DNA of 32,000 bases from Sinorhizobium meliloti (GTDB lineage: Bacteria; Pseudomonadota; Alphaproteobacteria; Rhizobiales; Rhizobiaceae): NCBI RefSeq assembly GCF_017876815.1, contig NZ_JAGIOS010000002.1, forward strand, positions 1,530,001 through 1,562,000, in the 5' to 3' direction. The notes under the pieces are model-generated. The model was not told the origin of the DNA. It made no database searches and worked only from the letters and a program-made list of their open reading frames with translations. The translations under genes were made by a program, and so were the position numbers. This document shows, one piece after another, positions 1,136 to 32,000 of this stretch (the stretch's first letter is position 1; each line of letters opens with the position of its first letter).

Positions 1136-2242
1136 TCACGTGCCGGTGGCTGCGAGCACGGGCGCCTCCGCCTCTATCGGCGGTGCCGCCGCCTTCTGTC
1201 CCCCCTTGCGGAATAGCTTCCATCGCGTCGGCCGGAAGGCGATGCGCGTGTGGTCGGTGGAGGCGGCGCGTTCCGGCGGGAGTTCGATCTCGACCGGAGG
1301 GTGGGTACGTCCGAGATCGAGTTCCAGATGCCGGGTGCCAGCCACGCGCCGGCTGGCCGTGACCAGGCCGGCGAGGCAACCGCCGCAGCCGTCGATGAGT
1401 TCCACGTCGTGCGGGCGGAAATAGAGGGTTGCGGGGCCGTCCGGCTCGTTCCCGGCACGAAGGCCGATCGGGCGGTCCTCGTGCCAGATTTCACCATTGG
1501 CGAGGGTGACGTCGAGGCAGTTCGACTGGCCGATGAAGCCGTAGACGAAGGGCGAGACCGGATGGTCATAGATCTCGTCGGGCGTGCCGACCTGCTCGAT
1601 CGCGCCCTTGCTCATCACGACGACGCGGTCGGCAAGCTCGAGTGCTTCCTCCTGGTCGTGGGTGACGAAGATCGTCGTGTGGCCGGTGCGGTCGTGGATT
1701 TCGCGCAGCCACCGCCTCAGCTCCTTGCGCACCTGCGCATCGAGCGCGCCGAAAGGCTCGTCGAGGAGCAGAACGTTGGGTTCGACGGCCATGGCGCGGG
1801 CGAGTGCGACGCGTTGGCGCTGCCCGCCGGAAAGCTGGGCCGGGTAGCGTTTCTCCAGCCCGGAGAGCTGCACCAGTTCCAGCAGGTCGAGCGCCCTGCG
1901 GCGGATGTCGGCAGCCGCCGGCCGCAGTTTGGCGGGCCGCACCTTCAGACCGAAGGCGACGTTGTCGAGCACCGTCATGTGGCGGAAAAGCGCGTAATGC
2001 TGGAAAACGAAGCCGATGTTGCGTTCCTGCACGGTCTTTTTCGACGCATCCTCGTCGCCGAAGAAAATCGTACCTTCGGTCGGGCTTTCGAGCCCGGCGA
2101 CCAGCCTCAGCAGCGTGGTCTTGCCGGAGCCGGAGGGGCCGAGGAGCGCGATCAGTTCACCCGACCGGATGTCGAGGGAAACGTCTTCGAGTGCGGGAAA
2201 GCGGCCGAATTCCTTGCGTATGTTCTGGACGCGGACTTCCAT
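1136..2242 (-). CDS. cysA: sulfate/thiosulfate ABC transporter ATP-binding protein CysA
   Basis: 368-aa ORF with Walker [13 protein letters not shown] signature LSGGQRQR and Walker B LLLDEPF, plus a C-terminal regulatory (TOBE-like) tail. It is the last gene in the canonical sbp-cysT-cysW-cysA order. Confidence 0.9.
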
Positions 2243-2257
2243 GGAGGTCTGGACCTT

Positions 2258-3139
2258 TCAGTGCCTGCGGCTGGCAGCGATCTCGTCGCTGTAGCGAAGT
2301 TCAAGAGCAGTCTTCAAAACGAGCGTTACCAGCGCCAGGAGCGCGAGGAGCGCTGCCACCGCAAATGCGGCGACGAAATTATATTCATTATAGAGGATTT
2401 CGACCTGCAACGGCATGGTGTTCGTTTGGCCGCGAATATGGCCGGACACGACCGAGACCGCACCGAACTCGCCCATGGCGCGGGCATTGCAAAGAAGCAC
2501 GCCGTAGAGCAGGCCCCATTTTATATTGGGAAGCGTCACATGCCAGAAGGTCTGCCAGCCGGTGGCCCCGAGCGAGAGTGCCGCTTCCTCGTCGGCCGTT
2601 CCCTGTTCCTGCATCAGCGGAATCAATTCACGCGCGACGAAGGGGAAGGTCACGAAGACGGTGGCGAGCACGAGGCCGGGAACGGCAAAGAGGATCTGGA
2701 TGCCGTAGCTCTGCAGGATCGGTCCGAGCACGCTGTGGGAGCTGAAAAGCAGCACGAAAACGAGGCCGGAGATCACAGGCGAAACGGAGAAGGGAAGGTC
2801 GATCAGCGTCGTCAGGAACGCCTTGCCCTTGAACTCGAATTTCGCGATGGCCCAGGCAGCCGCCACCCCGAAGACGAGATTGAGCGGCACGGCGATCCCC
2901 GCGACGAGCAGTGTCAACCGGATTGCGGAAAAGGTCTCGGGATCGCCAAGCGCCGTGACGAACTCCATCGCTCCTTTGCGGAACGCCTCGATGAACACCG
3001 TGGCGAGCGGCAGAAGCAGGAAGAGCGCGACGAAACCGAGCGCTACGATGGTCAGGACCACGCGCGAAAGCCGCGTTTCCGACGTTGCGGCCGTCACAAG
3101 CGTATTAGAGGCGTAGCCGGCATCATGCGCCATAACCAT
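2258..3139 (-). CDS. cysW: sulfate ABC transporter permease CysW
   Basis: 293-aa polytopic membrane ORF with multiple hydrophobic helices. Its position between cysT and cysA, with a 15-bp gap to cysA, fits CysW. Its start region overlaps the cysT stop. Confidence 0.85.
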
Positions 3140-3989
3140 ATCTCCGTCTGCTCCACGCCTGGATCACATTGATGACCAGCAGCATCATGAAGGAAAGCAG
3201 GAGCATCACCGCGGCGATCGCAGTTGCTGCCGGATAGTTGAACTCCTCCAGGCGGATGACGATCAGAAGCGGCGCGATCTCCGAGACATAGGGTAGGTTG
3301 CCGGCGATGAAGATCACCGAACCATATTCGCCGACGCCGCGGGCAAAGGCGAGTGCGAAGCCGGTCAACCCGGCAGGCAGGAGACCGGGCAACAAGACCC
3401 GGCTGATCGTCTGGAAGCGGGTGGCGCCGAGGGTCGCAGCCGCCTCTTCGACTTCCTTGTCGATCTCTTCCATGATCGGCTGCACGGTACGCACGACGAA
3501 GGGCAAGCCGACGAAGATCAGCGCCACGACGATCCCGGCAGGGGTGAAGGCGATCTTGATGCCGAGCGGAGCGAGCAGCGAGCCGATCCAGCCGTTCGGC
3601 GCATAAAGCGTCGTCAGTGCAATGCCGGCGACCGCTGTCGGCAGGGCGAAGGGCAGATCGACCATGGCGTCGATCACGCGCTTGCCGGGGAAGCGATAGC
3701 GCACGAGAACCCAGGCGAGGAGCACGCCGAAGACGAGGTTGACGACGGCTGCGATGAAGGCCGTGCCGAAGCTGATCGTCAATGCGTTGACCGTGCGCTC
3801 GTCAAGCGCCAGCTCCATGAATTTCGACCATCCGAGGCCACTGGAGCGCCACAGCAGACCGGAGAGAGGAATGAGGACGATGATGGTGAGCCATGCCAGC
3901 GTGACGCCGAGCGCCAATCCGAAACCCGGAATGACGCTCGGCTGCCGGAACCGCCATCGCGTGCTGCTGCGAGCGGCCATGGATATCAT
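3123..3989 (-). CDS. cysT: sulfate ABC transporter permease CysT (CysU)
   Basis: 288-aa polytopic membrane ORF. The start ATG (3989..3987) overlaps the sbp stop codon in an ATGA junction. It occupies the second position of the sulfate operon. Confidence 0.85.
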
Positions 3990-5011
3990 TGCCCCGGTCT
4001 GTAGATCTGGTCGAAGACCCCGCCATCGCCGAAGAATTTCGGCTGAGCTTCCTTCCAGCCGCCGAAATCGTCGATCGATACGAGCTTCAATTCGGTGAAG
4101 CGCGCGGTGTCCTTGGGATCCGCCAGTTCAGGCTTGAACGGCCGGTAGTAGTGCTTGGCCGCGATCTTCTGCCCGACATCGCTGTAGAGATAGTCGAGAT
4201 AGGCCTCGGCGACCTTGCGCGTGCCCTTGCTGTCGACGTTGCCATCGACCAGCGCAACGGGGGGCTCGGCCTTGATCGAGATCGACGGCGTGACGATGTC
4301 GAAATTATCGGGGCCCAGCTCTTCCAGTGACAGATAGGCTTCGTTCTCCCAGGCCAGCAACACATCGCCAAGGCCGCGCTGGACGAAGGTGGTCGTCGCG
4401 CCGCGCGCGCCGGTGTCGAGAACCGGCACATGCTTGAAGAGCTGCGCCACATATTCTTGCGCCTTCGCATCGTCTCCGTTATTGGCGGCACGTGCCCAGG
4501 CCCAGGCGGCCAGGAAATTCCAGCGAGCGCCGCCCGAAGTCTTCGGGTTGGGCGTGATCACCTGCACATCCTCCCTGACGAGATCGCCCCAATCCTTGAT
4601 GCCTTTGGGGTTGCCCTTGCGGACGAGGAAGACGATGGTCGAGGTGTAGGGCGCGCTGTTGTTATCGAAGCGGGACTTCCAATCGACGGGGATCTTGCCG
4701 CTTTCCTTGGCGATCGCGTCGATATCCGCTTCGAGTGCCAGCGTCACGACGTCCGCCTCCAGGCCGTCGATGACCGAACGGGCCTGCTTGCCGGAACCGC
4801 CATGCGATGTCTGGATCGTCACGGTTTCGCCGGTGTCGGCCTGCCATTTTTCGGCAAAGGCCGCATTGAATTCCTTGTAAAGCTCCCGAGTCGGGTCGTA
4901 GGACACGTTCAGAATTGTCGTGTCCGCATGCGCGAGGCTAATCGAGCCAAGTTGCAGGCTTCCGACGATAAGCGCCAATTTCACTATTCCGGCAAGACTA
5001 TTCGAGCTCAT
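3986..5011 (-). CDS. sbp: periplasmic sulfate-binding protein (Sbp/CysP)
   Basis: The ORF track gives 3986..5023. I prefer the ATG at 5011 ([29 protein letters not shown]|DTT, a signal peptide) because GGAGG lies 5 nt upstream of it. The mature protein is about 310 aa with sulfate/thiosulfate SBP-like sequence, and it is the first gene of the cysTWA operon. Confidence 0.85.
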
Positions 5012-17256: not shown

Positions 17257-17297
17257 TTTCTTGTTCAATAGTCCAGATGTGTCAAGAGGGTTTGTTC

Positions 17298-18527
17298 ATG
17301 AACGAGATCCGCCCGATCCGGGCCAAGAGCGGCACCAATCAGGAGGGCGCGAGCGCACACAACCGCCGTGTCATGATCGACGCTCTGCGGCTGAACGGGC
17401 ATCTGTCCCGGGCCGATCTGGCGCGTGCGACCGCACTCACCAAGCAGGCCGTTTCCAACATCATCGAGGAGCTCGAGAACGACGGGCTCGTGGCGTCGCT
17501 TGCCGCGGTGCGCAAGGGGCGGGGACAGCCATCGACGCCCTATCGGCTGGTACCGGAAGGCGCCTTTGCCATCGGCCTTCAGATCGACCGGCACGTGACG
17601 CGCACGGTCGCCGTCGACCTGATCGGCACAGTCCTCGCCCGCAACGAGGTGATCCTGCCGGCCGGCGGTCCTGAGACGGGTGTCGAGGCCATACTCACCC
17701 TGATCGACGAAACACGGCAGGAACTTTCGGCCATGGCACCGCAATCCAGGGACCGTCTGGTGGGTCTGGGTGTGGCGATGCCGGGCCCGTTCGGCGTCGA
17801 CGCCGACGCCGACGATCCCTGGATGATGGCTGCCTGGCAGAGCTTTCCCTTGCTTGAAAGGCTCGCGGCCGGGACTGGTCTCGACGTGCGCCTCCAGAAC
17901 GACGCGGCGGCGGCCGCGACCGCGGAAAAGATGGTCGGCGCTGCCCATGGAGTCGACCACGCCCTCTGCGTCTATCTCGGTTACGGTCTTGGAGCGGGAC
18001 TGATCCTCAATGGCGAACTCTATCGTGGCGCGCATGGCAATGCCGGCGAGATCGGCATGATTTTGAGCAGGCCGCGTGGCGGCGCCGACGACGGGAGGGC
18101 ACCGCTGGAGCACCGGATATCGATCGCCTCTCTGTGCAAGATTCTCGAGATCGATCCCGCCGATGGCGATCTCTACGGCCGCATCGACGCCGTCGCTCAC
18201 TTGAAGGATCGTCGCGTAGCTGCCTGGATCGCAGAGGCGGCGTTCGAATTGCGGGCGACGATCCAGTTGCTCGAAACGGTTTTCGATCCGCAGATGATCA
18301 TTCTATGCGGCGGCATGCCATCCGGGCTCGCTCGCCTTCTCATGGACGCTCTCCACCCGCTGCTGCCGTCGATCGCCGAGCGGCGGCAACGCAGCGCGCC
18401 GCGGCTGCAACTGGGTTTCACGGACCCGTGGGCGGTTGCGATCGGTGCCGCGGCCGAGCCGATCAGCCGGACCTTCGATCCGCGCTTTTCAGCGATCCTA
18501 AAGACGCGGGCCGCGGGGCCGCCCTGA
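17298..18527 (+). CDS. ROK-family transcriptional regulator (NagC/XylR-like)
   Basis: Frame of track ORF 17277..18527. I prefer the ATG at 17298, which has AAGAGGG 7 nt upstream. It has an N-terminal wHTH (NRRVMIDALRLNGHLSRADLARATALTKQAVSNIIEELENDGLV) and a ROK sugar-binding domain with the GAHGNAGEIG motif. Confidence 0.85.
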   Translation: MNEIRPIRAKSGTNQEGASAHNRRVMIDALRLNGHLSRADLARATALTKQAVSNIIEELENDGLVASLAAVRKGRGQPSTPYRLVPEGAFAIGLQIDRHVTRTVAVDLIGTVLARNEVILPAGGPETGVEAILTLIDETRQELSAMAPQSRDRLVGLGVAMPGPFGVDADADDPWMMAAWQSFPLLERLAAGTGLDVRLQNDAAAAATAEKMVGAAHGVDHALCVYLGYGLGAGLILNGELYRGAHGNAGEIGMILSRPRGGADDGRAPLEHRISIASLCKILEIDPADGDLYGRIDAVAHLKDRRVAAWIAEAAFELRATIQLLETVFDPQMIILCGGMPSGLARLLMDALHPLLPSIAERRQRSAPRLQLGFTDPWAVAIGAAAEPISRTFDPRFSAILKTRAAGPP

Positions 18528-18734
18528 GCGCTAACGGCGTGGCGAATCGCTCGCGAAAATACGGATTGTTATTCTTACTTGAAATATTGCCGATATAGCG
18601 CTTAAATGCGCACCAGTCGGCGGGATCACATTTAACTGCTGCATGATTATTTGATTGCGTCTGCAACATTTCGCAGGCGGCTACATTTTTATTTGCATAC
18701 CATTTTTATTATCTAAAATCAGAGGGATTGCGAT

Positions 18735-19634
18735 ATGTCTCTTCCCCATCTTCGGCGGCTTGAAGCCGAAGCGATCCATGTCATTCGAGAAGTTGTTGCG
18801 ACATTCTCCAATCCGGTCGTGCTTTACTCGATCGGCAAAGACTCCTCGGTACTGCTGCACCTGGCGATGAAGGCGTTCTACCCCGCCAAGCCGCCATTTC
18901 CATTCCTGCATGTAGATACCAAATGGAAGTTCCGGGAGATGATCGAGTTTCGCGACCGGATGGCGCGAGAGCTCGGCTTCGATCTCCTCGTCCACGTCAA
19001 TCAGGACGGGGTCGAGCAGGGCATCGGGCCATTCACGCACGGTTCCAACGTGCACACCCATGTCATGAAGACGATGGGGCTCCGGCAGGCGCTCGAGAAA
19101 TACGGTTTCGACGCGGCGCTCGCAGGCGCGCGGCGCGACGAGGAGAAGTCGCGCGCCAAGGAACGCATCTTCTCGATTCGCAGCGCCCAGCACGGCTGGG
19201 ATCCGCAGCGCCAGCGGCCCGAGATGTGGAAGACTTACAATACGCGGGTCGGACAAGGCGAGACGATGCGAGTCTTCCCGCTTTCCAACTGGACCGAATT
19301 CGACATCTGGCAGTACATCCTGCGCGAGGAAATTCCGATCGTGCCGCTTTATTTCGCGGCCAGGCGCCCGGTCGTGAAGCGAGAGGGTATGCTGATCATG
19401 GTCGACGACGACCGCATGCCCATCCAACCCGAAGAGGAGGTTACCGAACAGCTCGTGCGTTTCCGCACGCTTGGCTGCTATCCGCTGACCGGGGCGGTCG
19501 AGTCCGACGCTGTCACCGTTCCCGAGATATTGCGGGAAATGCTGACGGTGCGCACGTCCGAACGGCAGAGCCGGCTGATCGACACGGATGAGGTCGGGGC
19601 GATGGAGAAAAAGAAGCGGGAGGGCTACTTCTGA
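18735..19634 (+). CDS. cysD: sulfate adenylyltransferase subunit 2 (CysD / NodP)
   Basis: 299-aa ORF with the PP-loop motif [12 protein letters not shown] and the conserved stretch [20 protein letters not shown]. The stop shares one base with the next start (TGATG). Confidence 0.95.
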
Positions 19635-21535
19635 TGTCGTATGTTCAATCCATACCACCGCATGACATTGAAGCGCATCTGGCCGAGCACGACAACAAGT
19701 CGATCCTGAGATTCATCACTTGCGGCTCGGTCGACGACGGCAAATCGACCCTGATCGGGCGACTGCTTTACGATGCGAAGCTGGTCTTCGAAGACCAGCT
19801 CGCAAACCTCGGGCGGGTCGGCTCTCCCGGCACCGCCAACGGTAAGGAGATCGATCTCGCCTTGCTTCTCGACGGGCTTGAGGCCGAGCGCGAGCAGGGC
19901 ATCACCATCGACGTGGCCTATCGCTACTTCGCCACGTCCAAACGCAAGTTCATCGTCGCCGATACGCCCGGCCACGAGGAATATACGCGCAACATGGTGA
20001 CCGGCGCTTCTACGGCGGATCTCGCCATCATCCTCATCGACAGCCGGCAGGGCATTCTCCAGCAGACCCGGCGCCACTCCTATATCGCCTCACTCCTCGG
20101 CATCCGCCATGTCGTGCTGGCCGTCAACAAGATCGATCTGGTTGATTATCAACAACAGGTGTACGAGGAAATCGTCGCCGACTACATGGCTTTCGCCAAA
20201 GAGCTCGGTTTTGCCAGCATACGGCCAATCCCGATCTCGGCGCGAGACGGCGACAACGTCATCTCGGCTTCCACCAATACGCCCTGGTACAGAGGGGCGG
20301 CGCTGCTCGAATATCTGGAAACGGTCGAACTCGAGCCAACGGACGAGGCAAGGCCTTTCCGCTTCCCGGTTCAGATGGTCATGCGGCCGAACGCGGATTT
20401 TCGCGGCTATGCCGGGCAGATCTCCTGCGGGAGGATTTCCGTGGGCGATCCGGTCGCCGTCGCGAAGACCGGGCAGCGCACATCGGTCAAGGCGATCGTG
20501 ACCTTTGACGGGGAGCTTGCGACGGCAGAGGAAGGCGAAGCGGTGACACTGGTCCTCTCTGACGAGGTGGATGCGTCCCGCGGCAATATGCTCGTCGCCC
20601 CCGGTGCCCGGCCCTTCGTGGCGGACCAGTTCCAGGCGCATGTGATCTGGTTCGATGCGAACCCGATGATGCCGGGACGAAGCTATATCCTGCGCACGGA
20701 GACCGACAGCGTCAGCGCGACGGTCACCACGCTCAAGCACCAGGTCAACATCAACAGCTTCATCCGTGAGGCGGCGAAGTCGCTGCAGATGAATGAAGTG
20801 GGTGTCTGCAACATCTCGACACAGGCGCCGATCGCCTTCGACGCCTACAAGGACAACCGGGCGACGGGCAATTTCATCATCGTCGACCGGGTGACGAATG
20901 CCACGGTTGGTGCGGGGTTGATCGATTTTCCGCTCCGGCGCGCAGACAACGTCCACTGGCATGCGCTCGAGGTTAACAAGAGCGCGCGCAGCGCCATGAA
21001 AAATCAGCTCCCTGCAGTTCTCTGGTTCACCGGGCTTTCCGGCTCCGGAAAATCGACCATCGCGAACGAGCTCGACAGGATCCTCCACGCTCAGGGCAAG
21101 CATACCTACCTGCTCGACGGCGACAATGTGCGTCACGGCCTTAACCGGGACCTCGGCTTTACCGAGGAGGACCGGGTAGAGAACATCCGCCGCGTGGCGG
21201 AGGTGGCCAAGCTCATGGCCGATGCCGGTCTGATCGTTCTCGTCTCCTTCATCTCGCCGTTCCGAGACGAGCGGCGGATGGCGCGGGAATTGATGGCGGA
21301 GGGCGAGTTCATCGAGATATTCGTCGACACGCCGCTCGACGAGTGTGCGCGCCGCGATCCGAAGGGGCTCTACGAGAAGGCGCTCGCCGGCAAGATCGCG
21401 AACTTCACCGGCGTATCCTCGCCCTATGAGGCCCCGGAAAATCCGGAACTCCATATACGCACCGTCGGCCATGAACCGACCGACCTGGCGCTCGCGATCG
21501 AGGAATTCCTTGACCGCAGGATGGAGGACAAATGA
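19634..21535 (+). CDS. cysNC: bifunctional sulfate adenylyltransferase subunit 1 / adenylylsulfate (APS) kinase (CysN-CysC fusion, NodQ-type)
   Basis: 633-aa ORF. The N-terminal GTPase has G1 [17 protein letters not shown] and NKID. The C-terminal APS kinase has the P-loop [14 protein letters not shown] plus [11 protein letters not shown]. This fused architecture is the one known from rhizobial NodQ. Confidence 0.95.
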
Positions 21536-22371
21536 CGCCCCTTTGCAAAATGCTGGAGCGCATAGCGCTCGATGCGGGAGCGGCAATTCTCGAGGTCTAC
21601 GACGCCGGTCCCCAAGTCTGCTACAAGGACGATCACTCGCCCGTCACCGAAGCCGACGAGCGGGCCGAAGCGATCATTCTCGAGAGACTTGCGGCGGCGT
21701 TTCCGCACATCCCCGTGGTTGCCGAGGAGTCTGTTTCCTCGGGCCGCGTTCCGGATATCAGCGGCGGCACGTTCTTTCTCGTCGATCCGCTCGACGGCAC
21801 GAAGGAATTCATCAATCGCCGAAACGACTTCACCGTCAACATTGCCCTCATCGAGGGCAATGTGCCGGTTGCCGGCATCGTCTATGCACCCGCGCAGCGC
21901 TGCGCCTATGTCGCCGACGGCGGCAGGGCGGAAAAGCTTCTGCTCGATCCGGCATGGGCACTCGAACACCGGCAGTCGATCCGCGTGAGGATGCGGGGTG
22001 TGGAACTGACGGCGGTTGCCAGCCGCTCGCACAACAGTTCCGAGACCGAGGCCTTCCTCAACGGCCACGGCGTCATGAACTACGCTTCCGTGGGCTCGTC
22101 GCTGAAATTCTGCCTGCTGGCTGAGGGCAAGGCGGACGTCTATCCGCGGTTCGGCCGCACGATGGAGTGGGATACGGCCGCCGGCGACGCGGTGCTGAAA
22201 GCTGCCGGCGGATCGGTCGTCCGCTTGGACGGCTCGCGCCTCCTCTACGGCAAGACGGTGCAGGAGGAGGACAGCGCCTTCGCAAACCCGCACTTCATCG
22301 CCTGGGCGGATATGTCCTCGCTCCACCTGTCCGGCGCCGAGGGTCTTCAGCCTGCTTACGCGCTGTCGTGA
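21532..22371 (+). CDS. cysQ: 3'(2'),5'-bisphosphate nucleotidase CysQ (inositol monophosphatase superfamily)
   Basis: 279-aa ORF whose ATG overlaps the cysNC stop (ATGA). It has the motifs [17 protein letters not shown] and [10 protein letters not shown], typical of CysQ/IMPase. Confidence 0.85.
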
Positions 22372-22417
22372 ACAGTGAGATGTCCGCCGCAGCTTTTGTC
22401 AAAGGGCCGAGTGACGC

Positions 22418-23158
22418 ATGAATGGACAGGAGAAGATACGTGCTGGCAGGCCTGTGTTCTGCCGCTATCGGGACATCAGCCGAGAGCAACTGAACGTGGA
22501 GTTCCAGGTTCACACGAGTTGGACCGACGGGCAGGCGACTGCGCTTGAAATCCTGCAAACGGCCAGTGAACGCGGTCTCGCAGAGCTGGCTTTCACGGAG
22601 CACGTACGCGAAGACACGTCATGGTTTCCTGAGTTCAGAGACGAGATCCGCTCCGCTGCGCGTGGTTTTGATCATATGAGCGTCTATGTCGGCTGCGAGA
22701 CGAAAGCGATGGATGACGACGGCAGGCTGGATGTGTCGCAGGACGTGCTGGACGGATGCGATATCGTTCTCGGCGTCGTTCACAGGCTCCCGGACGGACG
22801 CGGCGGCTATCTGGATTTCAAGCGGCTTTCCTATGAAGAGACCGCCGGGATCGAGTTTCGCCTGTCGATGGGAATGGTCAAAAACGCGCCCATCGACGTC
22901 CTGGCGCATCCGGGCGGCATGAGCCTGAGGCGGCACGGGCGTTTTCCGGAAACCTATTTCAGGGACTTGATGAGAGCGACCGTCGAACGGCGGATCGCGA
23001 TCGAGATCAACTCCTCCTACCTCGTCGACATGCCGGCGTTTCTGGCCCTGTGCGAGGAGGTCAATCCGTTCGTTTCGATCGGTTCCGATGCGCACCGGTT
23101 GAGCGAACTGGGCCATTGCAGAGATCAGCTAATCGAATTGGGAGCAGGGCGGTCATGA
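22418..23158 (+). CDS. PHP-domain metal-dependent phosphoesterase (PolX/YcdX/HisJ-like), substrate unknown
   Basis: 246-aa ORF. PHP motifs are visible: QVHTSWTDG (motif I, with the first His replaced by Gln), FTEH, VVHR, LAHPG and GSDAH. It lies 46 nt after cysQ. Confidence 0.75.
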   Translation: MNGQEKIRAGRPVFCRYRDISREQLNVEFQVHTSWTDGQATALEILQTASERGLAELAFTEHVREDTSWFPEFRDEIRSAARGFDHMSVYVGCETKAMDDDGRLDVSQDVLDGCDIVLGVVHRLPDGRGGYLDFKRLSYEETAGIEFRLSMGMVKNAPIDVLAHPGGMSLRRHGRFPETYFRDLMRATVERRIAIEINSSYLVDMPAFLALCEEVNPFVSIGSDAHRLSELGHCRDQLIELGAGRS

Positions 23159-24147
23159 AGGTCTTTATCACCGGGGCAGGTGCCCTGCTCGGGCAAGGCA
23201 TCATTCGCGCTCTACGGCGCTCGACCTTGAACGCGAGGATAATCGTGGGAGACCCAAGTCCGCTCTCGGCCGGGCTTTACTGGGGGGATGCCGCCTATCT
23301 CGTGCCGATGGCCAAGGACCCTTCATATCTGGACCGGCTTGGCGAACTCCTGCATGCCGAACGGCCCGACATCCTCATTCCGGGAACCGACGTGGAACTT
23401 CCGATCCTCGCGGCGAACAGGAACGCGATCGAGAGAACCTACGGAACCAAGGTGATCATCAGTTCGCCGCGGGTGGTGTCGATCGCCAACGACAAGTGGC
23501 TGACCTCCGAGTTCTTTCGCGAGCGCGGCCTGGGATATGTTCCCTCCTGTCTGCCGGGCGATGAAGACGCTCTGATTCAGGAATGCGGATTTCCGCTCGT
23601 CATCAAACCGAGAGTCGGGGCACGTTCGATCGGCTTCAGCGTCGTTCGCAACCGCGAGCAGTTGGCGCGCGCAATTGAGGAGCAGCCCGGGATCGTGATC
23701 CAGAAACATGTCGGCTCCGAAACGAGCGAGTACACCGCCGGCACGCTGACCTTCAACGGGAAGTGCCGTGCGACGATCGTCATGCGCCGGGACCTTCGGG
23801 ACGGCAATACCTACAGGGCATTTGCAGAGCCTTTCCCCGCACTGAACAAGGCCATGGCAGAAGCTGCCGATGCCCTCGGTGCCTATGGTCCGGCGAACTT
23901 CCAGTTCCGTCTGGACGACGGTGTCCCCCGCATCTTCGAGATCAATGCGCGGTTCTCCGGAACCACGGCGGTCAGGATCCATGCGGGCTTCAACGAGGTG
24001 GAGATGTGCATCCGCCATCTTCTCTTCGACGAGCCGATCGAGCAGCCGCAGATCACGCCGGTGACGATATTGCGGCACTGGTCTGAAACCGTGGTGAGCC
24101 CCGGCGACCTGGTCACTGCGCCCGCGAAACTCGACGAGACGGTGTGA
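23155..24147 (+). CDS. ATP-grasp family ligase (carbamoyl-phosphate-synthase-L-chain-like fold), substrate unknown
   Basis: This is the real 3' part of track ORF 23050..24147. The start is the ATG at 23155 (MKVFITGAGALLGQGIIRAL...), overlapping the PHP stop (ATGA). It has a pre-ATP-grasp N-domain, the ATP-binding segment FPLVIKPRVGARSIGF and the catalytic E-x-N motif IFEINARFSGTT. About 330 aa. Confidence 0.8.
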   Translation: MKVFITGAGALLGQGIIRALRRSTLNARIIVGDPSPLSAGLYWGDAAYLVPMAKDPSYLDRLGELLHAERPDILIPGTDVELPILAANRNAIERTYGTKVIISSPRVVSIANDKWLTSEFFRERGLGYVPSCLPGDEDALIQECGFPLVIKPRVGARSIGFSVVRNREQLARAIEEQPGIVIQKHVGSETSEYTAGTLTFNGKCRATIVMRRDLRDGNTYRAFAEPFPALNKAMAEAADALGAYGPANFQFRLDDGVPRIFEINARFSGTTAVRIHAGFNEVEMCIRHLLFDEPIEQPQITPVTILRHWSETVVSPGDLVTAPAKLDETV

Positions 24148-25088
24148 GGAAGATGCGGCTGGTGGTTACCGGCGCGACCGGCTTCATCGGTGCCAGATTG
24201 ATCGATCGTGCCCTGTCGAGAGGGTACGAGGTCACTGCACTTGCGCGCGATCCGGAGCGGGCCGCAGCCAGAATCGGCGCGCGTCTCGGCGTCGAGAAAT
24301 GGTCGATCGGCGATCCTCTCCCGCCGCTAGGTCAATCCGATGCCGTTCTTCATCTTGCCGCCTACATTCCCGCCGATCTCAGCGATGCGCGTCAGGCCGC
24401 CCGATGCTTCGAGATCAACACGAACGGGGCCATCCAGATCGCGATGGAAGCGGCATCGCAGGGCGTGAAGCGTTTTGTCCTGTTCGGATCCGCGCAGGTC
24501 TATGCTCCCGGCACGGAGCCCGCTTCGGAAGCGAGCCCGGCCTATCCCGTGCACCGGGCGAGCTACTATCTGGCGAGCAAGCTCGCGGCCGAAATCTGTG
24601 TGCTGGCCTTCGGCAAATCCAGCGCCATGCCGGTCACGGTGCTCCGCCTCGCATCGGTGTACGGTCCCGGCATGCACGATACCGGAATGGTGCCCACCTT
24701 CGTACGAACACTCGGAAGCGGGCGTTCCCTCGTCATTCAGGACGGGGGGCGATACAGTGTCGACCTAGTCTATGTCGACGATGTCGTGACGCTGGCGCTG
24801 CAGGCGGTGGAGACAGCCGAAGGCGGCGTATTCAATGCGGGGAGCGGGCGTGCTTGCACGTCGCTGGAAGCCGCCCAGATCGTCGCCGATGCAGTCGGGG
24901 CAGAACGGCACCTCATTGCCGTGGAGGGCGACAGCACCGATGCGGCGCCGCGCGGTTTCAGGGTCCTCAACGTTTCCAAGGCCGCAAACGAACTGAGCTA
25001 CGCGCCGCTCTCCTTCCGGGAAGGGATCGAAGCATGGAAATCGATGACGGGCCTGACGGATTTTCAGGACGGGAGCGTGAACGCGTAG
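24144..25088 (+). CDS. NAD(P)-dependent epimerase/dehydratase (extended SDR)
   Basis: 314-aa ORF whose GTG at 24144 overlaps the ATP-grasp stop (GTGA); an alternative ATG lies at 24153. It has the Rossmann motif VVTGATGFIG and the catalytic YxxxK (YLASK). Confidence 0.85.
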   Translation: MRKMRLVVTGATGFIGARLIDRALSRGYEVTALARDPERAAARIGARLGVEKWSIGDPLPPLGQSDAVLHLAAYIPADLSDARQAARCFEINTNGAIQIAMEAASQGVKRFVLFGSAQVYAPGTEPASEASPAYPVHRASYYLASKLAAEICVLAFGKSSAMPVTVLRLASVYGPGMHDTGMVPTFVRTLGSGRSLVIQDGGRYSVDLVYVDDVVTLALQAVETAEGGVFNAGSGRACTSLEAAQIVADAVGAERHLIAVEGDSTDAAPRGFRVLNVSKAANELSYAPLSFREGIEAWKSMTGLTDFQDGSVNA

Positions 25089-25091
25089 TAG

Positions 25092-25152
25092 GCTTCGAAA
25101 CAGGCAATTGGTTCGAAGCGCAGCGACGCGCGTCCATAGACGCGCTGCGCTG
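25092..25152. terminator. two tandem hairpins in the 85-bp convergent gap (possible bidirectional terminator)
   Basis: GCTTCGAA-N12-TTCGAAGC (25092-25119), then CAGCGACGCGCG-N8-CGCGCTGCGCTG (25121-25152; 10 of 12 positions pair). They lie between the SDR stop (25088) and the RTX stop (25174). There are no clear U-tracts, hence the modest confidence. Confidence 0.4.
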
Positions 25153-25173
25153 CGCCGACGCTTCCTTCACCGA

Positions 25174-26337
25174 TCAGGCGAAAAGGAAATCGCTGCTCGA
25201 AAAGTTCGCGGCGCTAAGGGTGCCGTTGGGATCGTCCAGCAGAATGGAGAAGGCTTTGCCGGAGGAGTCGTAGCCTTTTACCAGCACGTCGCCGCCCGTG
25301 GCATCATAGGCGTAGACGGTGCCTGCAGCGCCTGAGCTGGAGTATTGCTTAATCCCGAGCTTCTCTATGACGAGGAAATCGACGCCATCCTGGAAATCCA
25401 TGACGGTATCCTGACCACTGAGCACCGGGGCACCTTTGAAGACGAAACGATCGGAATCGGCTCCGCCCCATAGAATATCGGTTCCCGCCTCGCCGATGAG
25501 GACATCCCGGCCGGCGTCGCCGCGCAGGGTATCGTTGCCGTCGCCGCCGAAAATGCGATCGTAGTTGTTGCCGCCGCTCAAGGAATCGTTGCCGGCTTCG
25601 CCGTACAGCATGTCGTCACCGTCATCCCCGAAGACCCGATCGTCGCCGGCACCGACGACGATCTTGTCATTGCCGATGCCGCCGTGGGCCTCGTCGATGC
25701 CGCCCTCGGAATCCAGCACGTCATTACCGTCGCCACCGTCGAGATAGTTGTTCCCGTCGCCGCCATCGACGATGTCGTTGCCGATGCCGCCATAAACCCA
25801 ATCATTGCCGGATTGGCCCTTGAGAGCGTCATTGCCGTCTTCACCATATATCCTGTCGTGGCCGGCGCCGCCGGCGACCGCTTGCTGCGTGACCTGCCCG
25901 GTTGCGGGATTTACCCGGTTGTTGAAGCCGTCGTCTCCCGAACCGGCATAGATGATGTCGTCGCCATCCCCTGCGTCGATGTATTCTTCGCCTGCGCCGC
26001 CAAAAATCTTGTCGTGGCCCCGGCCGCCCAGGATCTGGTCATGGCCGTCGCCGCCATCGAGAATGTCGCTGCCGTCACCGCCGTCTAAGATGTCGTTCCC
26101 TAGTCCGCCCTTCAGCGTGTCATGGCCAAGGCCGCCGTCGAACCGGTCGTTACCCGCGCCACCTTCGGCATAGTCGTCGCCGAGCCCGCCGACGATGAAG
26201 TCATTGCCATCGCCGCCAAAAAGCTTGTCATTGCCCTCGGCGCCATCGAGATAGTCGTCGCCCGCGTAGCCCCAGAGCTCATCGTCGCTCAGAGCGCCGC
26301 GGATCGTGTCGGAAAGATTGGTTCCCTTCAGAATCAT
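25174..26337 (-). CDS. RTX (hemolysin-type calcium-binding) beta-roll repeat protein, probable type I secretion substrate
   Basis: 387-aa ORF with no N-terminal signal peptide. By my reading it has about 28 GGxGxDxUx nonapeptides in two blocks (for example GGDGNDFIVGGLGDDYAEGGAGNDRFDGGLGHDTLKGGLGNDILDGGDGSDILDGGDGHD), separated by an 18-aa linker. An acidic/hydrophobic C-terminal non-repeat domain ends in ...SSSDFLFA. Confidence 0.9.
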   Translation of the reverse strand: MILKGTNLSDTIRGALSDDELWGYAGDDYLDGAEGNDKLFGGDGNDFIVGGLGDDYAEGGAGNDRFDGGLGHDTLKGGLGNDILDGGDGSDILDGGDGHDQILGGRGHDKIFGGAGEEYIDAGDGDDIIYAGSGDDGFNNRVNPATGQVTQQAVAGGAGHDRIYGEDGNDALKGQSGNDWVYGGIGNDIVDGGDGNNYLDGGDGNDVLDSEGGIDEAHGGIGNDKIVVGAGDDRVFGDDGDDMLYGEAGNDSLSGGNNYDRIFGGDGNDTLRGDAGRDVLIGEAGTDILWGGADSDRFVFKGAPVLSGQDTVMDFQDGVDFLVIEKLGIKQYSSSGAAGTVYAYDATGGDVLVKGYDSSGKAFSILLDDPNGTLSAANFSSSDFLFA

Positions 26338-27683: not shown

Positions 27684-27751
27684 CGCAGCGACCCATGTCT
27701 GCCGCTCCGGCGACGTTCTCGGTGGCTGATCTGCGGCACGATGAAAATCCC

Positions 27752-29159: not shown

Positions 29160-31358
29160 TCACCTTCCGGGCAGGCGGAACTCCGCGCGGTAGCCGCGTG
29201 GTGATTTCGCTTCCTTGGCCTTGATCCGGCTCTTCGGCCGCAACGGTGTGCGTTTGCTCGCGGCCGCCATCTTGCGATCCGCCTCGTGCTCATATCGAGG
29301 AAGCAATTCGCGCATGACCGCCACGACGCTGGCCTCGTTCCCCCGTTCCGAATGGCGCTGCAGGCGCGCGAAAGCGTCCCTCAGCGTCGGCAGCGGAATG
29401 GGTTCGGGGACCGCTCCGAGGACGCCTGGGACCGGCGAGCTCGTGCGCTTGTCGGTCTCGTCGAAAAGCTCCTCGAAGAGCTTTTCGCCCGGCCGGCAGC
29501 CGATGATCTTGATTTCGATCTCCTGGTCCGGCGTGAAGCCGGCAAGCCGGATCATCCGGCGGGCGATATCGATGATCTTGATCGGTTCACCCATGTCCAG
29601 CACGAAGATCTCGCCCTGGCCGAGCTGCTTTTCGAAGCCGTAGGCGGAAGCCTGCAGGGTGAGTTCCACCGCCTCGCGGATCGTCATGAAGAACCGAGTC
29701 ATATTCGCGTCGGTCACGGTCAGGGGGCCGCCCCGGGCCAATTGACGCTTGAAGAGCGGAATCAGCGAACCGCTGGAACCCAGCACGTTGCCGAAGCGGA
29801 CGGTCATGAAGCGCGGGCCGAGGCCTGTTTCGAGCCCGTTCAGGTCGAGCGCCTGACAGTAGAGCTCGGCAAGACGCTTCGTCGCGCCCATGACGCTCGT
29901 CGAGTTGACGACCTTGTCGGTCGACACCTGGACCATCGCGAGCGTGCCGTATTTCTTGGCGGCGTTGGCGACATTCATGGTGCCGACGACATTGGTGAGT
30001 ACGCCCTCGCAAGGATTCATCTGGACCATCGGCACATGTTTCAAAGCCGCGGCGTGAAAGACGAGCTCAGGCCGGTGCCGCTCGAATATCTCCTCGACCC
30101 GCTGACTGCGGCGGACGCTGCAAAGATAGCTCCACCGCGGAAGTTCGGGGAAGCTTTCCGTGAGCGTCATGTCGATTGCGTAGAGATTGTATTCCGTGTT
30201 GTCGATCAGGACGATCTCCGCCGGTTCGCAGGCGGCGACCTGGGCCGTCAACTCGCTGCCGATCGAGCCGCCGGCTCCGGTGATGAGCACCCGGCGCCCG
30301 CGAACGAGGCGACCGATCGCCTCCCGGTCGAGCGCTGCCTGCGGCCGTTCCAGGAGGTCGGTCAATTCGATCGAGCGCAGCTCGTACGGGTTGTCACCCT
30401 TGGCGCGCTTCAGCTCCGTCATCTGCGACAGGCGCGAAACGGCAATGCCTAGTCTTTCGGCCGATCTCAAAAGGCCGTCGGATGCCTCCTCTCCAAAGGC
30501 CGCGGGGGCCTCGGTGAAGACGATGTGACGCGGCTGCTTGCCCTGTTGCTGCAACTCTGCAACCACCCGCTCGAAGTCTTGAATACGGCCGGCGATCGGC
30601 ACGCCGCGCAGGCTCATGCCGGTTTGATCCTCACTCCTGTCGAGGCATGCGACGGGCGTATAGGTCGCGTTGGGATCGCGTGCGAGAGCCCGAAGGTAAA
30701 GGTCGGCGGCATCGCTCGCGCCGATGAGCAGCAGCGGAATTCGCTTATCGTCCTGTGCGTCCTTGCTGCGCCCGGACTTGAAAACGGGCCGCCTCAGAGC
30801 GAGTTCCTCAGCACGGAAGCTCAGCCGCGCAGCTGCCAGGAAGGCGATGAGCAGGAGCGACTGCATCGGGACGACGGTGCGCGGGATGTCGGTGAGCCTG
30901 GTCGAGAAAAACAGCAGCGAGACGAGCAGCAGCGAGGTCAGCAACACCGCCCGCAAAATGATGAAAAGGTCGGAAATGGACCCATATTTCCAATTTCGGC
31001 TGTAGAGGCCGGAGAGGGGGAAAACGAGTGCGCATATGGTGAGGTATTGCGCACCCGACCATAGCAGCACCGAGGCGGTCTCTGGTCGTGCGGAAAGTTC
31101 TTCGACGCCGTAGCGTAGCAATAATGCCATCGCGAGCGCGACGCCGACCGATGCCAGGTCGGTGAGATAGAGGGCAGGATATTTCTGAACGCTGCGGACC
31201 GCTCCCCTTATCCGCCTGAAGCCGATATCGAGGGCGGCTCCGCAGATCGCCCAGAACATTCTGGCCGGTGCTCTGCTGCCCCCCTCTCTTCCCAAAATAG
31301 TCGGTAACGCCAGGAAATGATTACGAACTGCCTTCGCGGCGGCGTGTATACGCTGCAT
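29160..31358 (-). CDS. membrane-anchored nucleotide-sugar 4,6-dehydratase (WbpM / PglF / CapD family polysaccharide biosynthesis protein)
   Basis: Track ORF 29160..31373, with a likely start at MQRIH (31358). The N-terminal third has several hydrophobic helices, followed by the Rossmann motif VLITGAGGSIGSEL. The SDR catalytic region (STDKVVNSTSVMGATKRLAE) is typical of UDP-GlcNAc 4,6-dehydratases. A basic C-terminal tail follows. Confidence 0.85.
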   Translation of the reverse strand: MQRIHAAAKAVRNHFLALPTILGREGGSRAPARMFWAICGAALDIGFRRIRGAVRSVQKYPALYLTDLASVGVALAMALLLRYGVEELSARPETASVLLWSGAQYLTICALVFPLSGLYSRNWKYGSISDLFIILRAVLLTSLLLVSLLFFSTRLTDIPRTVVPMQSLLLIAFLAAARLSFRAEELALRRPVFKSGRSKDAQDDKRIPLLLIGASDAADLYLRALARDPNATYTPVACLDRSEDQTGMSLRGVPIAGRIQDFERVVAELQQQGKQPRHIVFTEAPAAFGEEASDGLLRSAERLGIAVSRLSQMTELKRAKGDNPYELRSIELTDLLERPQAALDREAIGRLVRGRRVLITGAGGSIGSELTAQVAACEPAEIVLIDNTEYNLYAIDMTLTESFPELPRWSYLCSVRRSQRVEEIFERHRPELVFHAAALKHVPMVQMNPCEGVLTNVVGTMNVANAAKKYGTLAMVQVSTDKVVNSTSVMGATKRLAELYCQALDLNGLETGLGPRFMTVRFGNVLGSSGSLIPLFKRQLARGGPLTVTDANMTRFFMTIREAVELTLQASAYGFEKQLGQGEIFVLDMGEPIKIIDIARRMIRLAGFTPDQEIEIKIIGCRPGEKLFEELFDETDKRTSSPVPGVLGAVPEPIPLPTLRDAFARLQRHSERGNEASVVAVMRELLPRYEHEADRKMAAASKRTPLRPKSRIKAKEAKSPRGYRAEFRLPGR

Positions 31359-31431
31359 GACGGCCCCTTCCAATACTTTTAAGCCCTACAGCTCCGCCGA
31401 ACGACGAACGCACGACCCCCCAAAGCTCTTA

Positions 31432-32000
31432 GAGGCTGCCTCAAAAAGAATTGAGTGATTTCAGCCAGTTGTGATTCCGTCGGATTTGCAAAGATTCGAT
31501 GGAGATCACGATGGCCTGGACTGAAACCACCCGGCGCAATTATGTCCGGCGGACGAGCGGATATGCAAGCGATGTCACGGATCGCGAATGGGATTTTGTT
31601 GCACCGTTCATGCCTGCGCCACGGCGTCTGGGTCGTCCGCGCAAGACTGATTTGCGCGATGTTTTAAACGCCCTTCTCTATATCGCTTCGACAGGCTGCC
31701 AGTGGCGGATGCTGCCGAAGGACTTTCCGCCCTGTTCGACGGTGCAGCGATATTTCTATGAATGGCGGGCAATGGGTCTTTGGCCACGGATCAACCATCA
31801 CCTCGTCATGGAGGCGCGGGAATTGGAGGGGAAAGAAGCCTCGCCGACAGCGGGCGCGATCGACAGCCAAAGCGTTAAAACGACGGAAAGCGGCGGTATC
31901 CGTGGCTTTGATGCAGGCAAGAAGATTAAGGGCCGCAAGCGCCACATCATTGTCGACACGCTCGGGCTGATGGTCGGCCTCATGGTGCACAGCGCCGATA
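31432..32000 (+). mobile_element. IS5-family insertion sequence, left end and 5' part (continues beyond the window)
   Basis: The transposase ORF starts at 31511. The candidate terminal inverted repeat begins GAGGCTGCCTCAAAAAG at about 31432, preceded by TTA/TTAG, which fits TNA/YTAR target preferences in IS5-family subgroups. The boundary is uncertain by a few nucleotides because the right end is not in the window. Confidence 0.6.
31511..32000 (+). CDS. IS5-family DDE transposase (N-terminal 163 codons; truncated by the window edge)
   Basis: Absent from the ORF track because it runs off the edge. My translation from the ATG at 31511 reads MAWTETTRRNYVRRTSGYASDVTDREWDFVAPFMPAPRRLGRPRKTDLRDVLNALLYIASTGCQWRMLPKDFPPCSTVQRYFYEWRAMGLWPRINHHLVMEARELEGKEASPTAGAIDSQSVKTTESGGIRGFDAGKKIKGRKRHIIVDTLGLMVGLMVHSAD. 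It has the DUF4096-type N-domain and the first catalytic D in the IDSQSVKT context, typical of IS5/IS4-like DDE_Tnp_1 transposases. Confidence 0.9.
   Translation, partial: MAWTETTRRNYVRRTSGYASDVTDREWDFVAPFMPAPRRLGRPRKTDLRDVLNALLYIASTGCQWRMLPKDFPPCSTVQRYFYEWRAMGLWPRINHHLVMEARELEGKEASPTAGAIDSQSVKTTESGGIRGFDAGKKIKGRKRHIIVDTLGLMVGLMVHSAD

Follow-up and report, generated by a model that had tools for sequence, protein, structure and literature searches.

The 32,000-nucleotide stretch of Sinorhizobium meliloti DNA analyzed here (assembly GCF_017876815.1, contig NZ_JAGIOS010000002.1, positions 1,530,001 to 1,562,000; hereafter the window) carries six tightly packed plus-strand genes: cysD, cysNC, and cysQ, which serve the synthesis of 3'-phosphoadenosine 5'-phosphosulfate (PAPS) and the removal of its by-product 3'-phosphoadenosine 5'-phosphate (PAP), followed by genes for a PHP-family phosphoesterase, an ATP-grasp ligase, and a short-chain dehydrogenase/reductase (SDR). 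Our favored interpretation, which we hold with moderate confidence, is that two modules have been joined at a 46-nt gap, one supplying PAPS and the other N-acylating and tailoring an amino sugar. The polysaccharide cluster around these genes is already known; the new part is the conserved phosphoesterase/ATP-grasp/SDR module, which gives the "hypothetical" genes SMb21226 to SMb21228 a concrete proposed role in a symbiosis-regulated S. meliloti polysaccharide cluster. The six genes and the gap are listed below; here and throughout, SMb names were assigned to window genes from gene order and published descriptions.

18735..19634, plus strand: cysD (nodP2, SMb21223), sulfate adenylyltransferase small subunit (TIGR02039, 522 bits; also called by PGAP)
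19634..21535, plus strand: cysNC (nodQ2, SMb21224), PAPS-making fusion of the ATP sulfurylase GTPase subunit and adenosine 5'-phosphosulfate (APS) kinase (NF004035, 1047 bits)
21532..22371, plus strand: cysQ (SMb21225), 3'(2'),5'-bisphosphate nucleotidase, which removes the PAP by-product (TIGR01331, 287.3 bits)
22372..22417, plus strand: 46-nt gap, read here as the seam where the trio joins the PAPS module
22418..23158, plus strand: PHP-family phosphoesterase, SMb21226 homolog (predicted structure, metal ligands, and structure matches)
23155..24147, plus strand: ATP-grasp carboxylate-amine ligase, SMb21227 homolog (NF009402, "carbamoyl phosphate synthase-like," 465 bits)
24153..25088, plus strand: extended SDR of the NAD-dependent epimerase/dehydratase family, SMb21228 homolog (Epimerase, 159 bits; alternative GTG start at 24144)

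The PAPS genes and the trio meet at a clade-specific seam

We surveyed the neighborhood of the ATP-grasp gene in 80 species loci with 10-kb flanks, mapping neighbors by tblastn; greedy open reading frame (ORF) calling sometimes picked antisense ORFs in GC-rich loci, and the final statistics use tblastn instead. Unless adjacency is stated, the counts below refer to genes within 10 kb of the ATP-grasp gene. Only in Sinorhizobium/Ensifer species and one related Rhizobiales isolate (loci L002 to L013) do cysD-cysNC-cysQ immediately precede the PHP gene; in other Rhizobiaceae the trio has no cys genes attached to it. Outside the Sinorhizobium clade, cysDN was present in 2 of the 68 species with the ATP-grasp module and fused to it in none. 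In four species (Ensifer aridi, Ensifer sp. BR816, S. fredii USDA 205, and S. americanum; loci L005, L006, L010, and L012), a gene for a glutamine-dependent asparagine-synthase-like protein (646 aa; Asn_synthase and GATase domains; L005:7262-9200) sits exactly between cysQ and PHP. Because the cys fusion is limited to one clade, the asnB-like gene was inserted at precisely this point, and other rhizobiaceal trios stand without cys genes, we read the 46-nt gap as the seam of two modules. This distribution does not bear out the idea, raised in the initial annotation, that the trio is specifically a partner of the PAPS pathway; the link to PAPS is a lineage-specific splice and involves no new sulfation mechanism. 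AsnB-like genes were also seen near the module in several other phyla.

A phosphoesterase/ATP-grasp/SDR module is conserved across phyla

When 1.84 billion representative proteins (50% clustering) were searched with a profile, 879 members of the ATP-grasp family were returned at E <= 1e-30, and homologs 50-62% identical to the window protein were found in Myxococcota, Planctomycetota, Chloroflexota, Acidobacteriota, Gemmatimonadota, Actinomycetota, Cyanobacteria, Bacillota, and sphingomonads. A phosphoesterase gene adjoins the ATP-grasp gene in 73 of the 80 loci, and at least three of the seven loci without one are at contig ends. Its type varies: PHP lies directly upstream in 34/80 loci and a calcineurin-like metallophosphoesterase (Pfam Metallophos) is found in 39/80, either upstream or immediately behind the SDR gene, and the two never occur together. 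This swap is a non-orthologous displacement of one required activity. The SDR gene follows the ATP-grasp gene directly in 65/80 loci.

The same partners also occur as single polypeptides. PHP is fused to ATP-grasp in proteins from Candidatus Peribacter and a Nanoarchaeota metagenome-assembled genome (MAG) (P0254 and P0272), Metallophos to ATP-grasp in P0380, and ATP-grasp to SDR in P0294 and P0307; a metagenomic protein, P0305, joins a Bac_transf domain to an ATP-grasp domain that scores 251 bits to the family of the window protein and is 36% identical to that protein. These fusions bear out a functional coupling of the members of the trio. On a neighbor-joining (NJ) tree of the ATP-grasp proteins the type of partner is consistent within clades, and the tree is incongruent with taxonomy, which argues for lateral spread of the unit. 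Our literature searches found no description of a sugar module that combines ATP-grasp with a PHP or metallophosphoesterase protein; likewise, within a limited search, nothing was found on SMb21226-28 as a unit, on the seam, or on the wider distribution of the trio.

A probable place in a 4-amino-4,6-dideoxy sugar pathway

DegT-type aminotransferase genes accompany the ATP-grasp gene in 47 of the 80 loci, WbpM/PglF-like 4,6-dehydratase genes in 39, and small phosphoglycosyltransferase (PGT) genes in 35, whereas a UDP-glucose-dehydrogenase homolog is present in 7; DegT, WbpM-like, and small PGT genes are also the genomic company of the Bacillus cereus ligase Pyl, discussed below. Some loci are compact operons of the order PGT-PHP-ATPgrasp-SDR-DegT-(WbpM) with no hexapeptide N-acetyltransferase, and in Rhizobium the order is PGT-formyltransferase-PIG-L-DegT-PHP-ATPgrasp-SDR. 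The S. meliloti cluster has all of the partner genes as well, though not side by side: the window contains the WbpM-like gene (SMb21232 homolog), the formyltransferase gene is just past its end, and a PGT-PIG-L-DegT operon adjoins a sulfotransferase gene about 21-25 kb from the trio in the reference record. Since the dehydratase, the aminotransferase, and the PGT of a bacillosamine-type pathway are present, the trio can be placed in the position of the N-acetyltransferase. The trio probably belongs to a 4-amino-4,6-dideoxy-N-acetylhexosamine (HexNAc) pathway, a point that the initial annotation had missed.

Features of the encoded proteins

The PAPS module is conventional. CysNC carries its APS_kinase domain at residues 461-609, and together with CysD, which has the PAPS_reduct fold, it has the NodPQ arrangement of a CysN GTPase fused to APS kinase; CysQ scores above the curated equivalog cutoff (287.3 against 228.8 bits). 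Abola et al. reportedly found in 1999 that sulfate assimilation in S. meliloti runs by way of APS reductase; in that case, the PAPS made by NodQ goes to sulfotransfer only.

The PHP protein has the distorted TIM barrel and the His/Asp/Glu metal ligands of its superfamily: H32, D37, E61, H62, E94, H122, H164, D224, and H226 are invariant or nearly so, and the first motif reads QxH in the rhizobial proteins and HxH in the rest of the family. Its AlphaFold2 model (mean predicted local distance difference test [pLDDT] score, 94) is closest to the PHP domain of PolX, YcdX, and histidinol-phosphate phosphatase (template modeling [TM] scores of 0.62-0.68), compared with 0.41-0.43 for RNase AM/TrpH-type PHP proteins. 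A capsule tyrosine phosphatase of the CpsB/YwqE type was considered as well; none was among the top 50 fold matches and the PHP domain is fused to ATP-grasp domains in other lineages, so that this identity, although not tested directly, is unlikely.

The ATP-grasp protein scores 465 bits against a cutoff of 218 for NF009402, as expected of a carboxylate-amine ligase, and its 330-aa product, read from the start at 23155, is covered over 100% of its length by homologs. Its model (pLDDT, 91) matches 2pn1, PurK, PylC, and biotin carboxylase with a probability of 1.0. It is a stand-alone ATP-grasp protein and not a PGT/ATP-grasp polypeptide of the PglB2 type. Fold searches with the PHP and ATP-grasp models confirmed both folds and gave no substrate for either. 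The third protein is an extended SDR, about 310 aa long and with its substrate domain at the C terminus, in which TGATGFIG provides the Rossmann motif (GxxGxxG), GSAQVY the serine, and YYLASK the YxxxK motif.

A proposed route and its closest relatives

In the route that we favor, NodP2, NodQ2, and CysQ would make PAPS and remove PAP for three canonical sulfotransferases encoded farther along the cluster, and the phosphoesterase, the ATP-grasp ligase, and the SDR would form a self-contained, horizontally mobile sugar-tailoring unit that replaces the PglD N-acetyltransferase step. A UDP-4-amino-4,6-dideoxy-HexNAc would be made by the WbpM-like dehydratase and the DegT aminotransferase, which is encoded elsewhere in the cluster; the ATP-grasp enzyme would then acylate the 4-amino group with a carboxylic acid through an acyl-phosphate, for which Pyl of B. 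cereus and the ATP-grasp domain of PglB2 of Neisseria offer precedents. The side chain or the sugar would be finished by the phosphoesterase and the SDR, after which the small PGT would begin the repeat unit on undecaprenyl phosphate. In the version that we prefer, the donor would be a phosphorylated acid such as phosphoglycerate, and the phosphoesterase would take off the phosphate after ligation. We favor such a donor because the phosphoesterase is the most tightly coupled partner; argued from analogy, this specific version is tentative and may well be wrong. The identities, packing, conservation, fusions, and context of the genes were observed; which sugar and which acyl donor are used, how the steps follow one another, and where sulfate is attached are our inference.

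A close relative in context and putative chemistry is Pyl (Bc5272), which acts with Pat and Pdeg and ligates 2-oxoglutarate to UDP-4-amino-N-acetylfucosamine (UDP-4-amino-FucNAc), as cited in PMC11626204 and PMC8987622. Its ATP-grasp gene, too, has genes for a DegT-type 4-aminotransferase, a WbpM-like 4,6-dehydratase, and a small PGT for company, and it acylates the 4-amino group of a UDP-sugar, as the window enzyme would. The two differ in that no obligatory phosphoesterase partner is described for Pyl. Neisseria PglB2, a PGT joined to an ATP-grasp domain, gives glyceramido-acetamido-trideoxyhexose (GATDH) (PMC11130364). The same domain logic recurs here: P0305 shares the PGT/ATP-grasp architecture, and in many loci the module is immediately preceded by a small PGT gene, whereas in S. 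meliloti the PGT and ATP-grasp genes are separate and about 21 kb apart in the reference record. In relation to the bacillosamine pathway (PglF/PglE/PglD/PglC), the module is accompanied by homologs of the dehydratase, the aminotransferase, and the small PGT and occupies the PglD slot, but acetyl-CoA-dependent acetylation would be replaced by ATP-dependent ligation and two tailoring enzymes, and rhizobia add PIG-L, formyltransferase, and sulfotransferase genes.

For a phosphoesterase dedicated to an ATP-grasp sugar ligase we know of one precedent only. Work from the Raushel laboratory on Campylobacter jejuni is said to show that the ATP-grasp amidoligase Cj1438 joins a phosphorylated amine to glucuronate and that the HAD phosphatase Cj1435 then removes the phosphate. 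Ligation of a phosphorylated partner followed by dephosphorylation is what we propose for the trio as well; in C. jejuni, however, the sugar carries the carboxylate, the partner is a phospho-amine, and the phosphatase is of the HAD type, whereas in the present case gene context suggests that the amine comes from an amino sugar.

Extended beyond S. meliloti, the proposal would be that many phyla, including bacteria of the Candidate Phyla Radiation (CPR) and DPANN archaea, N-acylate a UDP-4-amino-4,6-dideoxy-HexNAc with a phosphorylated metabolite (e.g., 3-phosphoglycerate) and then dephosphorylate it, and that in Alphaproteobacteria the resulting hydroxylated residue is the target of an SMb21249-type sulfotransferase. 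On balance we consider this generalization unlikely. If the phosphorylated-metabolite route were true, it would account as well for the synthesis of glyceramido sugars, neisserial GATDH among them, and if an SMb21249-type sulfotransferase acted on that residue, the splicing of PAPS genes onto the module in Sinorhizobium would be explained too. A ligate-then-dephosphorylate scheme, if it holds, would be a general way to unusual N-acyl amino sugars in bacterial glycans, where such sugars are important to antigenic diversity.

Weighing the alternatives

Several observations weigh against the amino-sugar route. The role given to the phosphoesterase comes by analogy alone, and an ATP-grasp ligase itself needs no phosphoesterase; the Lujinxingia loci have none. 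Cyanobacterial and Chloroflexi variants lack the SDR, so that step is dispensable there, and several Myxococcota trios stand alone with no DegT, PGT, or WbpM gene in reach, which makes the amino-sugar link frequent and not universal. More mildly, and as regards strict co-regulation of the six genes, Clr microarrays list nodP2 and nodQ2 among the induced genes and do not list SMb21225-28 (PMC5498481).

The phosphoesterase would have a natural role, following the precedent of Cj1438/Cj1435, if the ATP-grasp enzyme coupled a phosphorylated amine, either ethanolamine phosphate or serinol phosphate, to a uronic acid through its carboxylate, the phosphoesterase dephosphorylated the product, and the SDR were a UDP-uronate 4-epimerase. 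The S. meliloti cluster does contain a nucleotide-sugar dehydrogenase gene, the PDB matches of the SDR include UDP-hexose and UDP-glucuronate 4-epimerases, and AsnB-like amidotransferases, which are typical of uronic-acid amidation, stand at the seam in the four species named above. Yet UDP-glucose-dehydrogenase homologs are rare beside the module (7/80 loci, against 47/80 for DegT), no HisC/CobD-type enzyme for a phospho-amine was seen next to it, and both the PGT/ATP-grasp fusions and the compact PGT-PHP-ATPgrasp-SDR-DegT-WbpM operons point to a UDP-amino-sugar substrate; we judge such a uronamide route rather unlikely. A strictly Pyl-like reaction is, in our estimate, quite improbable. Here 2-oxoglutarate, the by-product of the aminotransferase, would be ligated to the 4-amino sugar and reduced by the SDR to a 2-hydroxyglutaryl group, with the phosphoesterase as an accessory for proofreading or for a lipid-linked pyrophosphate. 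Pyl is the sole ATP-grasp ligase for a UDP-4-amino sugar that is known to have been characterized biochemically, and the reaction would explain the near-universal pairing, and the fusions, of ATP-grasp and SDR. The abstract of Hwang et al. (2014) is also said to report the reduced 2-hydroxyglutaryl form in the B. cereus polymer. Against this, a phosphoesterase that is adjacent in 73/80 loci and fused to ATP-grasp in three lineages goes unexplained, the SDR is of the extended, NDP-sugar type and is no 2-hydroxyacid dehydrogenase, and the solved structure nearest to the ATP-grasp model, 2pn1, shares only 22% identity with it and lacks an assigned function.

We hold it highly improbable that the trio takes part directly in sulfur chemistry, whether as a non-canonical sulfotransferase or sulfonucleotide-modifying system or through PHP as a second pAp phosphatase beside CysQ, and its distribution largely refutes this. 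Its physical fusion to cysD-cysNC-cysQ in Sinorhizobium invites the idea, and some PHP enzymes do hydrolyze pAp; however, PHP scores 19 bits against a cutoff of 400 with NF041577, the model of that 3',5'-bisphosphate phosphatase family (Cv1693/TrpH type), and its predicted structure fits the RNase AM/TrpH proteins poorly, as described above. PHP moreover tracks the ATP-grasp gene and not the cys genes, as does the calcineurin-like esterase that can replace it. No gene for PAPS synthesis or sulfotransfer was found in 51/80 species, and the S. meliloti cluster already encodes canonical sulfotransferases.

Sulfotransferases in the cluster and near related modules

The initial annotation had noted that no sulfotransferase was in sight and proposed one that is either encoded outside the window or non-canonical. 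We found none among the window genes that were scanned or in the co-linear annotation of positions 1-31431, bearing in mind that not every window ORF was scanned with hidden Markov models and that the remaining ~570 nt are an insertion sequence (IS) element. Past the right end of the window, the co-linear record carries three Sulfotransfer_1/3 ORFs in the same cluster, the first of them about 2 kb beyond the window end in the reference record and farther away in this strain, where an ISRm4-1 element is inserted. Only the first of the two proposals is thus needed: three ordinary sulfotransferases make a non-canonical one hidden in the trio superfluous, and the trio occurs without sulfation genes in most of the species surveyed. 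The suggestion of a dedicated glycan pathway gains support, as the operon sits in a polysaccharide cluster where the PAPS is presumably consumed.

Sulfation genes were found near the module in 29/80 loci, all of them alphaproteobacterial. In 14 sphingomonad species with a Metallophos-ATP-grasp-SDR module, a Sulfotransfer_1 gene lies 2.7 kb upstream of the ATP-grasp gene (e.g., L055:7209-8066), and over its full length the product shares 50% identity with the S. meliloti sulfotransferase encoded next to DegT (SMb21249 by gene order). L087:16818-17660 was noted together with these 14 loci. Two further species (L061 and L065) have cysD-cysNC-cysQ 5-8 kb away, and an Aureimonas locus has a homolog of the SMb21237-type sulfotransferase. 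The sphingomonad loci that bear the sulfotransferase fall in a different ATP-grasp clade from Sinorhizobium on the NJ tree; the association with sulfation therefore arose, or was retained, in two lineages of the module. This is a hint, short of proof, that sulfation has a preference for the decorated residue or for the glycan that bears it.

The locus is part of a known putative polysaccharide cluster

The 6.35-kb segment matches pSymB-type megaplasmids of S. meliloti at 100% identity and strain 2011 at 98.8%, and the record CP050561.1 is co-linear with positions 1-31431 of the window (99.97% identity, offset 1266). The window operon is at the same locus as the published nodP2-smb21248 cluster, a 30-kb cluster for a putative sulfated surface polysaccharide under Clr/cAMP control, with 13 glycosyltransferases, the export proteins ExoP2, Wzx1, ExoF2, and ExoF3, and the sulfotransferases SMb21237, SMb21243, and SMb21249, and in which SMb21228 and SMb21232 are termed "sugar epimerases" (Zou et al. 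2017, PMC5498481). The locus had been recognized before this analysis. The roughly 30-kb cluster looks Wzx/Wzy-dependent.

Gene junctions, transcription signals, and expression

The six ORFs are on the plus strand with the domains initially assigned to them, and the tight packing described for them is real. Read directly, cysD and cysNC overlap in TGATG (19632-19636), cysNC and cysQ in ATGA (21532-21535), and PHP and ATP-grasp in ATGA (23155-23158), the last with a Shine-Dalgarno-like GGGAGCAGGG in front. These overlaps and the 46-nt gap had been reported correctly, but the fourth overlap, a GTGA between ATP-grasp and SDR, is doubtful: the ATG at 24153 has GAGGAAG in front, is the start called by PGAP, and is where the tblastn alignments begin. 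The SDR probably starts there, which leaves a spacing of +5 nt and the packing still tight. Two candidate signals flank the genes.

18692..18719, plus strand: weak sigma-70-like promoter match TTTGCA-16-TAAAAT, the sole one on this strand, found by consensus scan in the AT-rich 207-nt spacer upstream of cysD
25092..25153, no strand assigned: two adjoining GC-rich hairpins in the convergent intergenic region (minimum free energy, -44 kcal/mol; z = -2.74)

The consensus scan gave 2 matches where 1.9 were expected, and the match at 18692..18719 is not significant alone; on the plus strand it gave no promoter-like site between 18735 and 25088. Terminator-like sites were no commoner in that interval than in shuffled sequence, and the hairpins, which appear only 3' of the SDR stop codon, probably mark the end of the operon. 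From the spacing, the lack of internal signals, and a shared proteomic module, we infer that the six genes are likely one transcript. In a phaR mutant under low phosphate, one up-regulated proteomic module contains NodP (log2, 4.34), SMb21227 (2.81), and SMb21229 (2.49) together with SMb21236, SMb21240, and ExoF3; NodP appears there under the label nodP SMa0855 (PMC12542648). Because nodP1 and nodP2 are 99.7% similar (PMC5498481), that entry may not be separable from NodP2.

Neighboring features of the window

Other features of the window are as follows; the annotation of the sulfate transporter was carried over from CP050561.1 through the alignment given above.

1136..5011, minus strand: sulfate ATP-binding cassette (ABC) transporter (substrate-binding protein, cysT, cysW, and ATPase), annotated in the co-linear record
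25174..26337, minus strand: RTX/HemolysinCabind calcium-binding exported protein, 387 aa, SMb21229 homolog, convergent with the operon
26601-27755 and 27752-28978, minus strand: two family 4 glycosyltransferase (GT4) genes (SMb21230/SMb21231)
29160..31373, minus strand: WbpM/PglF-like membrane-anchored UDP-GlcNAc 4,6-dehydratase, SMb21232 homolog (PGAP start equivalent to 31259)
31432..32000, no strand assigned: IS5-like ISRm4-1 element (98.8-99.7% identity to annotated copies)

A glycan module had been placed directly downstream of the six genes. Its WbpM-like gene and pair of GT4 genes do exist, but they lie on the minus strand, convergent with the operon, and between them and the SDR gene stand the double hairpin and the RTX gene, which the initial annotation did not mention; the RTX gene is kept at this position in most Sinorhizobium species. 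The WbpM-like enzyme would supply the 4-keto-6-deoxy-HexNAc precursor. The ISRm4-1 element, which CP050561.1 lacks, is particular to this strain; it sits between the WbpM-like operon and the formyltransferase gene, 58-172 nt upstream of where the WbpM-like gene starts on the minus strand, and could change expression of the SMb21232-30 operon in this strain. The sulfate transporter operon, about 14 kb upstream of nodP2, provides neighborhood context for sulfate supply, and between the two are operons for uptake and catabolism of amino acids and amino sugars and a ROK regulator gene (17277-18527).

Variant modules in other lineages

In the metagenomic proteins P0241, P0282, and P0306 the ATP-grasp domain is fused to still other partners, a GNAT/FemAB-like domain in proteins of 710-717 aa and a SAM-dependent methyltransferase domain in a protein of 589 aa, which suggest extra elaboration of the ligated group in some lineages. 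In Lujinxingia (L044:11997-15287 and L024:9202-9882), translations read by eye show that both the phosphoesterase and the SDR are missing and that a PglD-like hexapeptide acyltransferase lies beside the ATP-grasp gene; in L044 this acyltransferase has an N-terminal lipoyl/biotinyl domain and is followed by 2-oxoacid dehydrogenase E1 alpha and beta genes. Judged from these translations, the arrangement looks like a different way of supplying the acyl group. A BLASTN search of 5,426 E. coli genomes with the homolog from an Enterobacteriaceae MAG gave no match that would point to an E. coli O-antigen locus with the module. In Myxococcota, a conserved 314-aa protein without a Pfam match (L082:8993-9937) precedes the trio, which has the order ATP-grasp-SDR-Metallophos; this trio lies outside any obvious polysaccharide cluster, and its neighbors are DUF350, DUF4178, and spermine-synthase-like genes.

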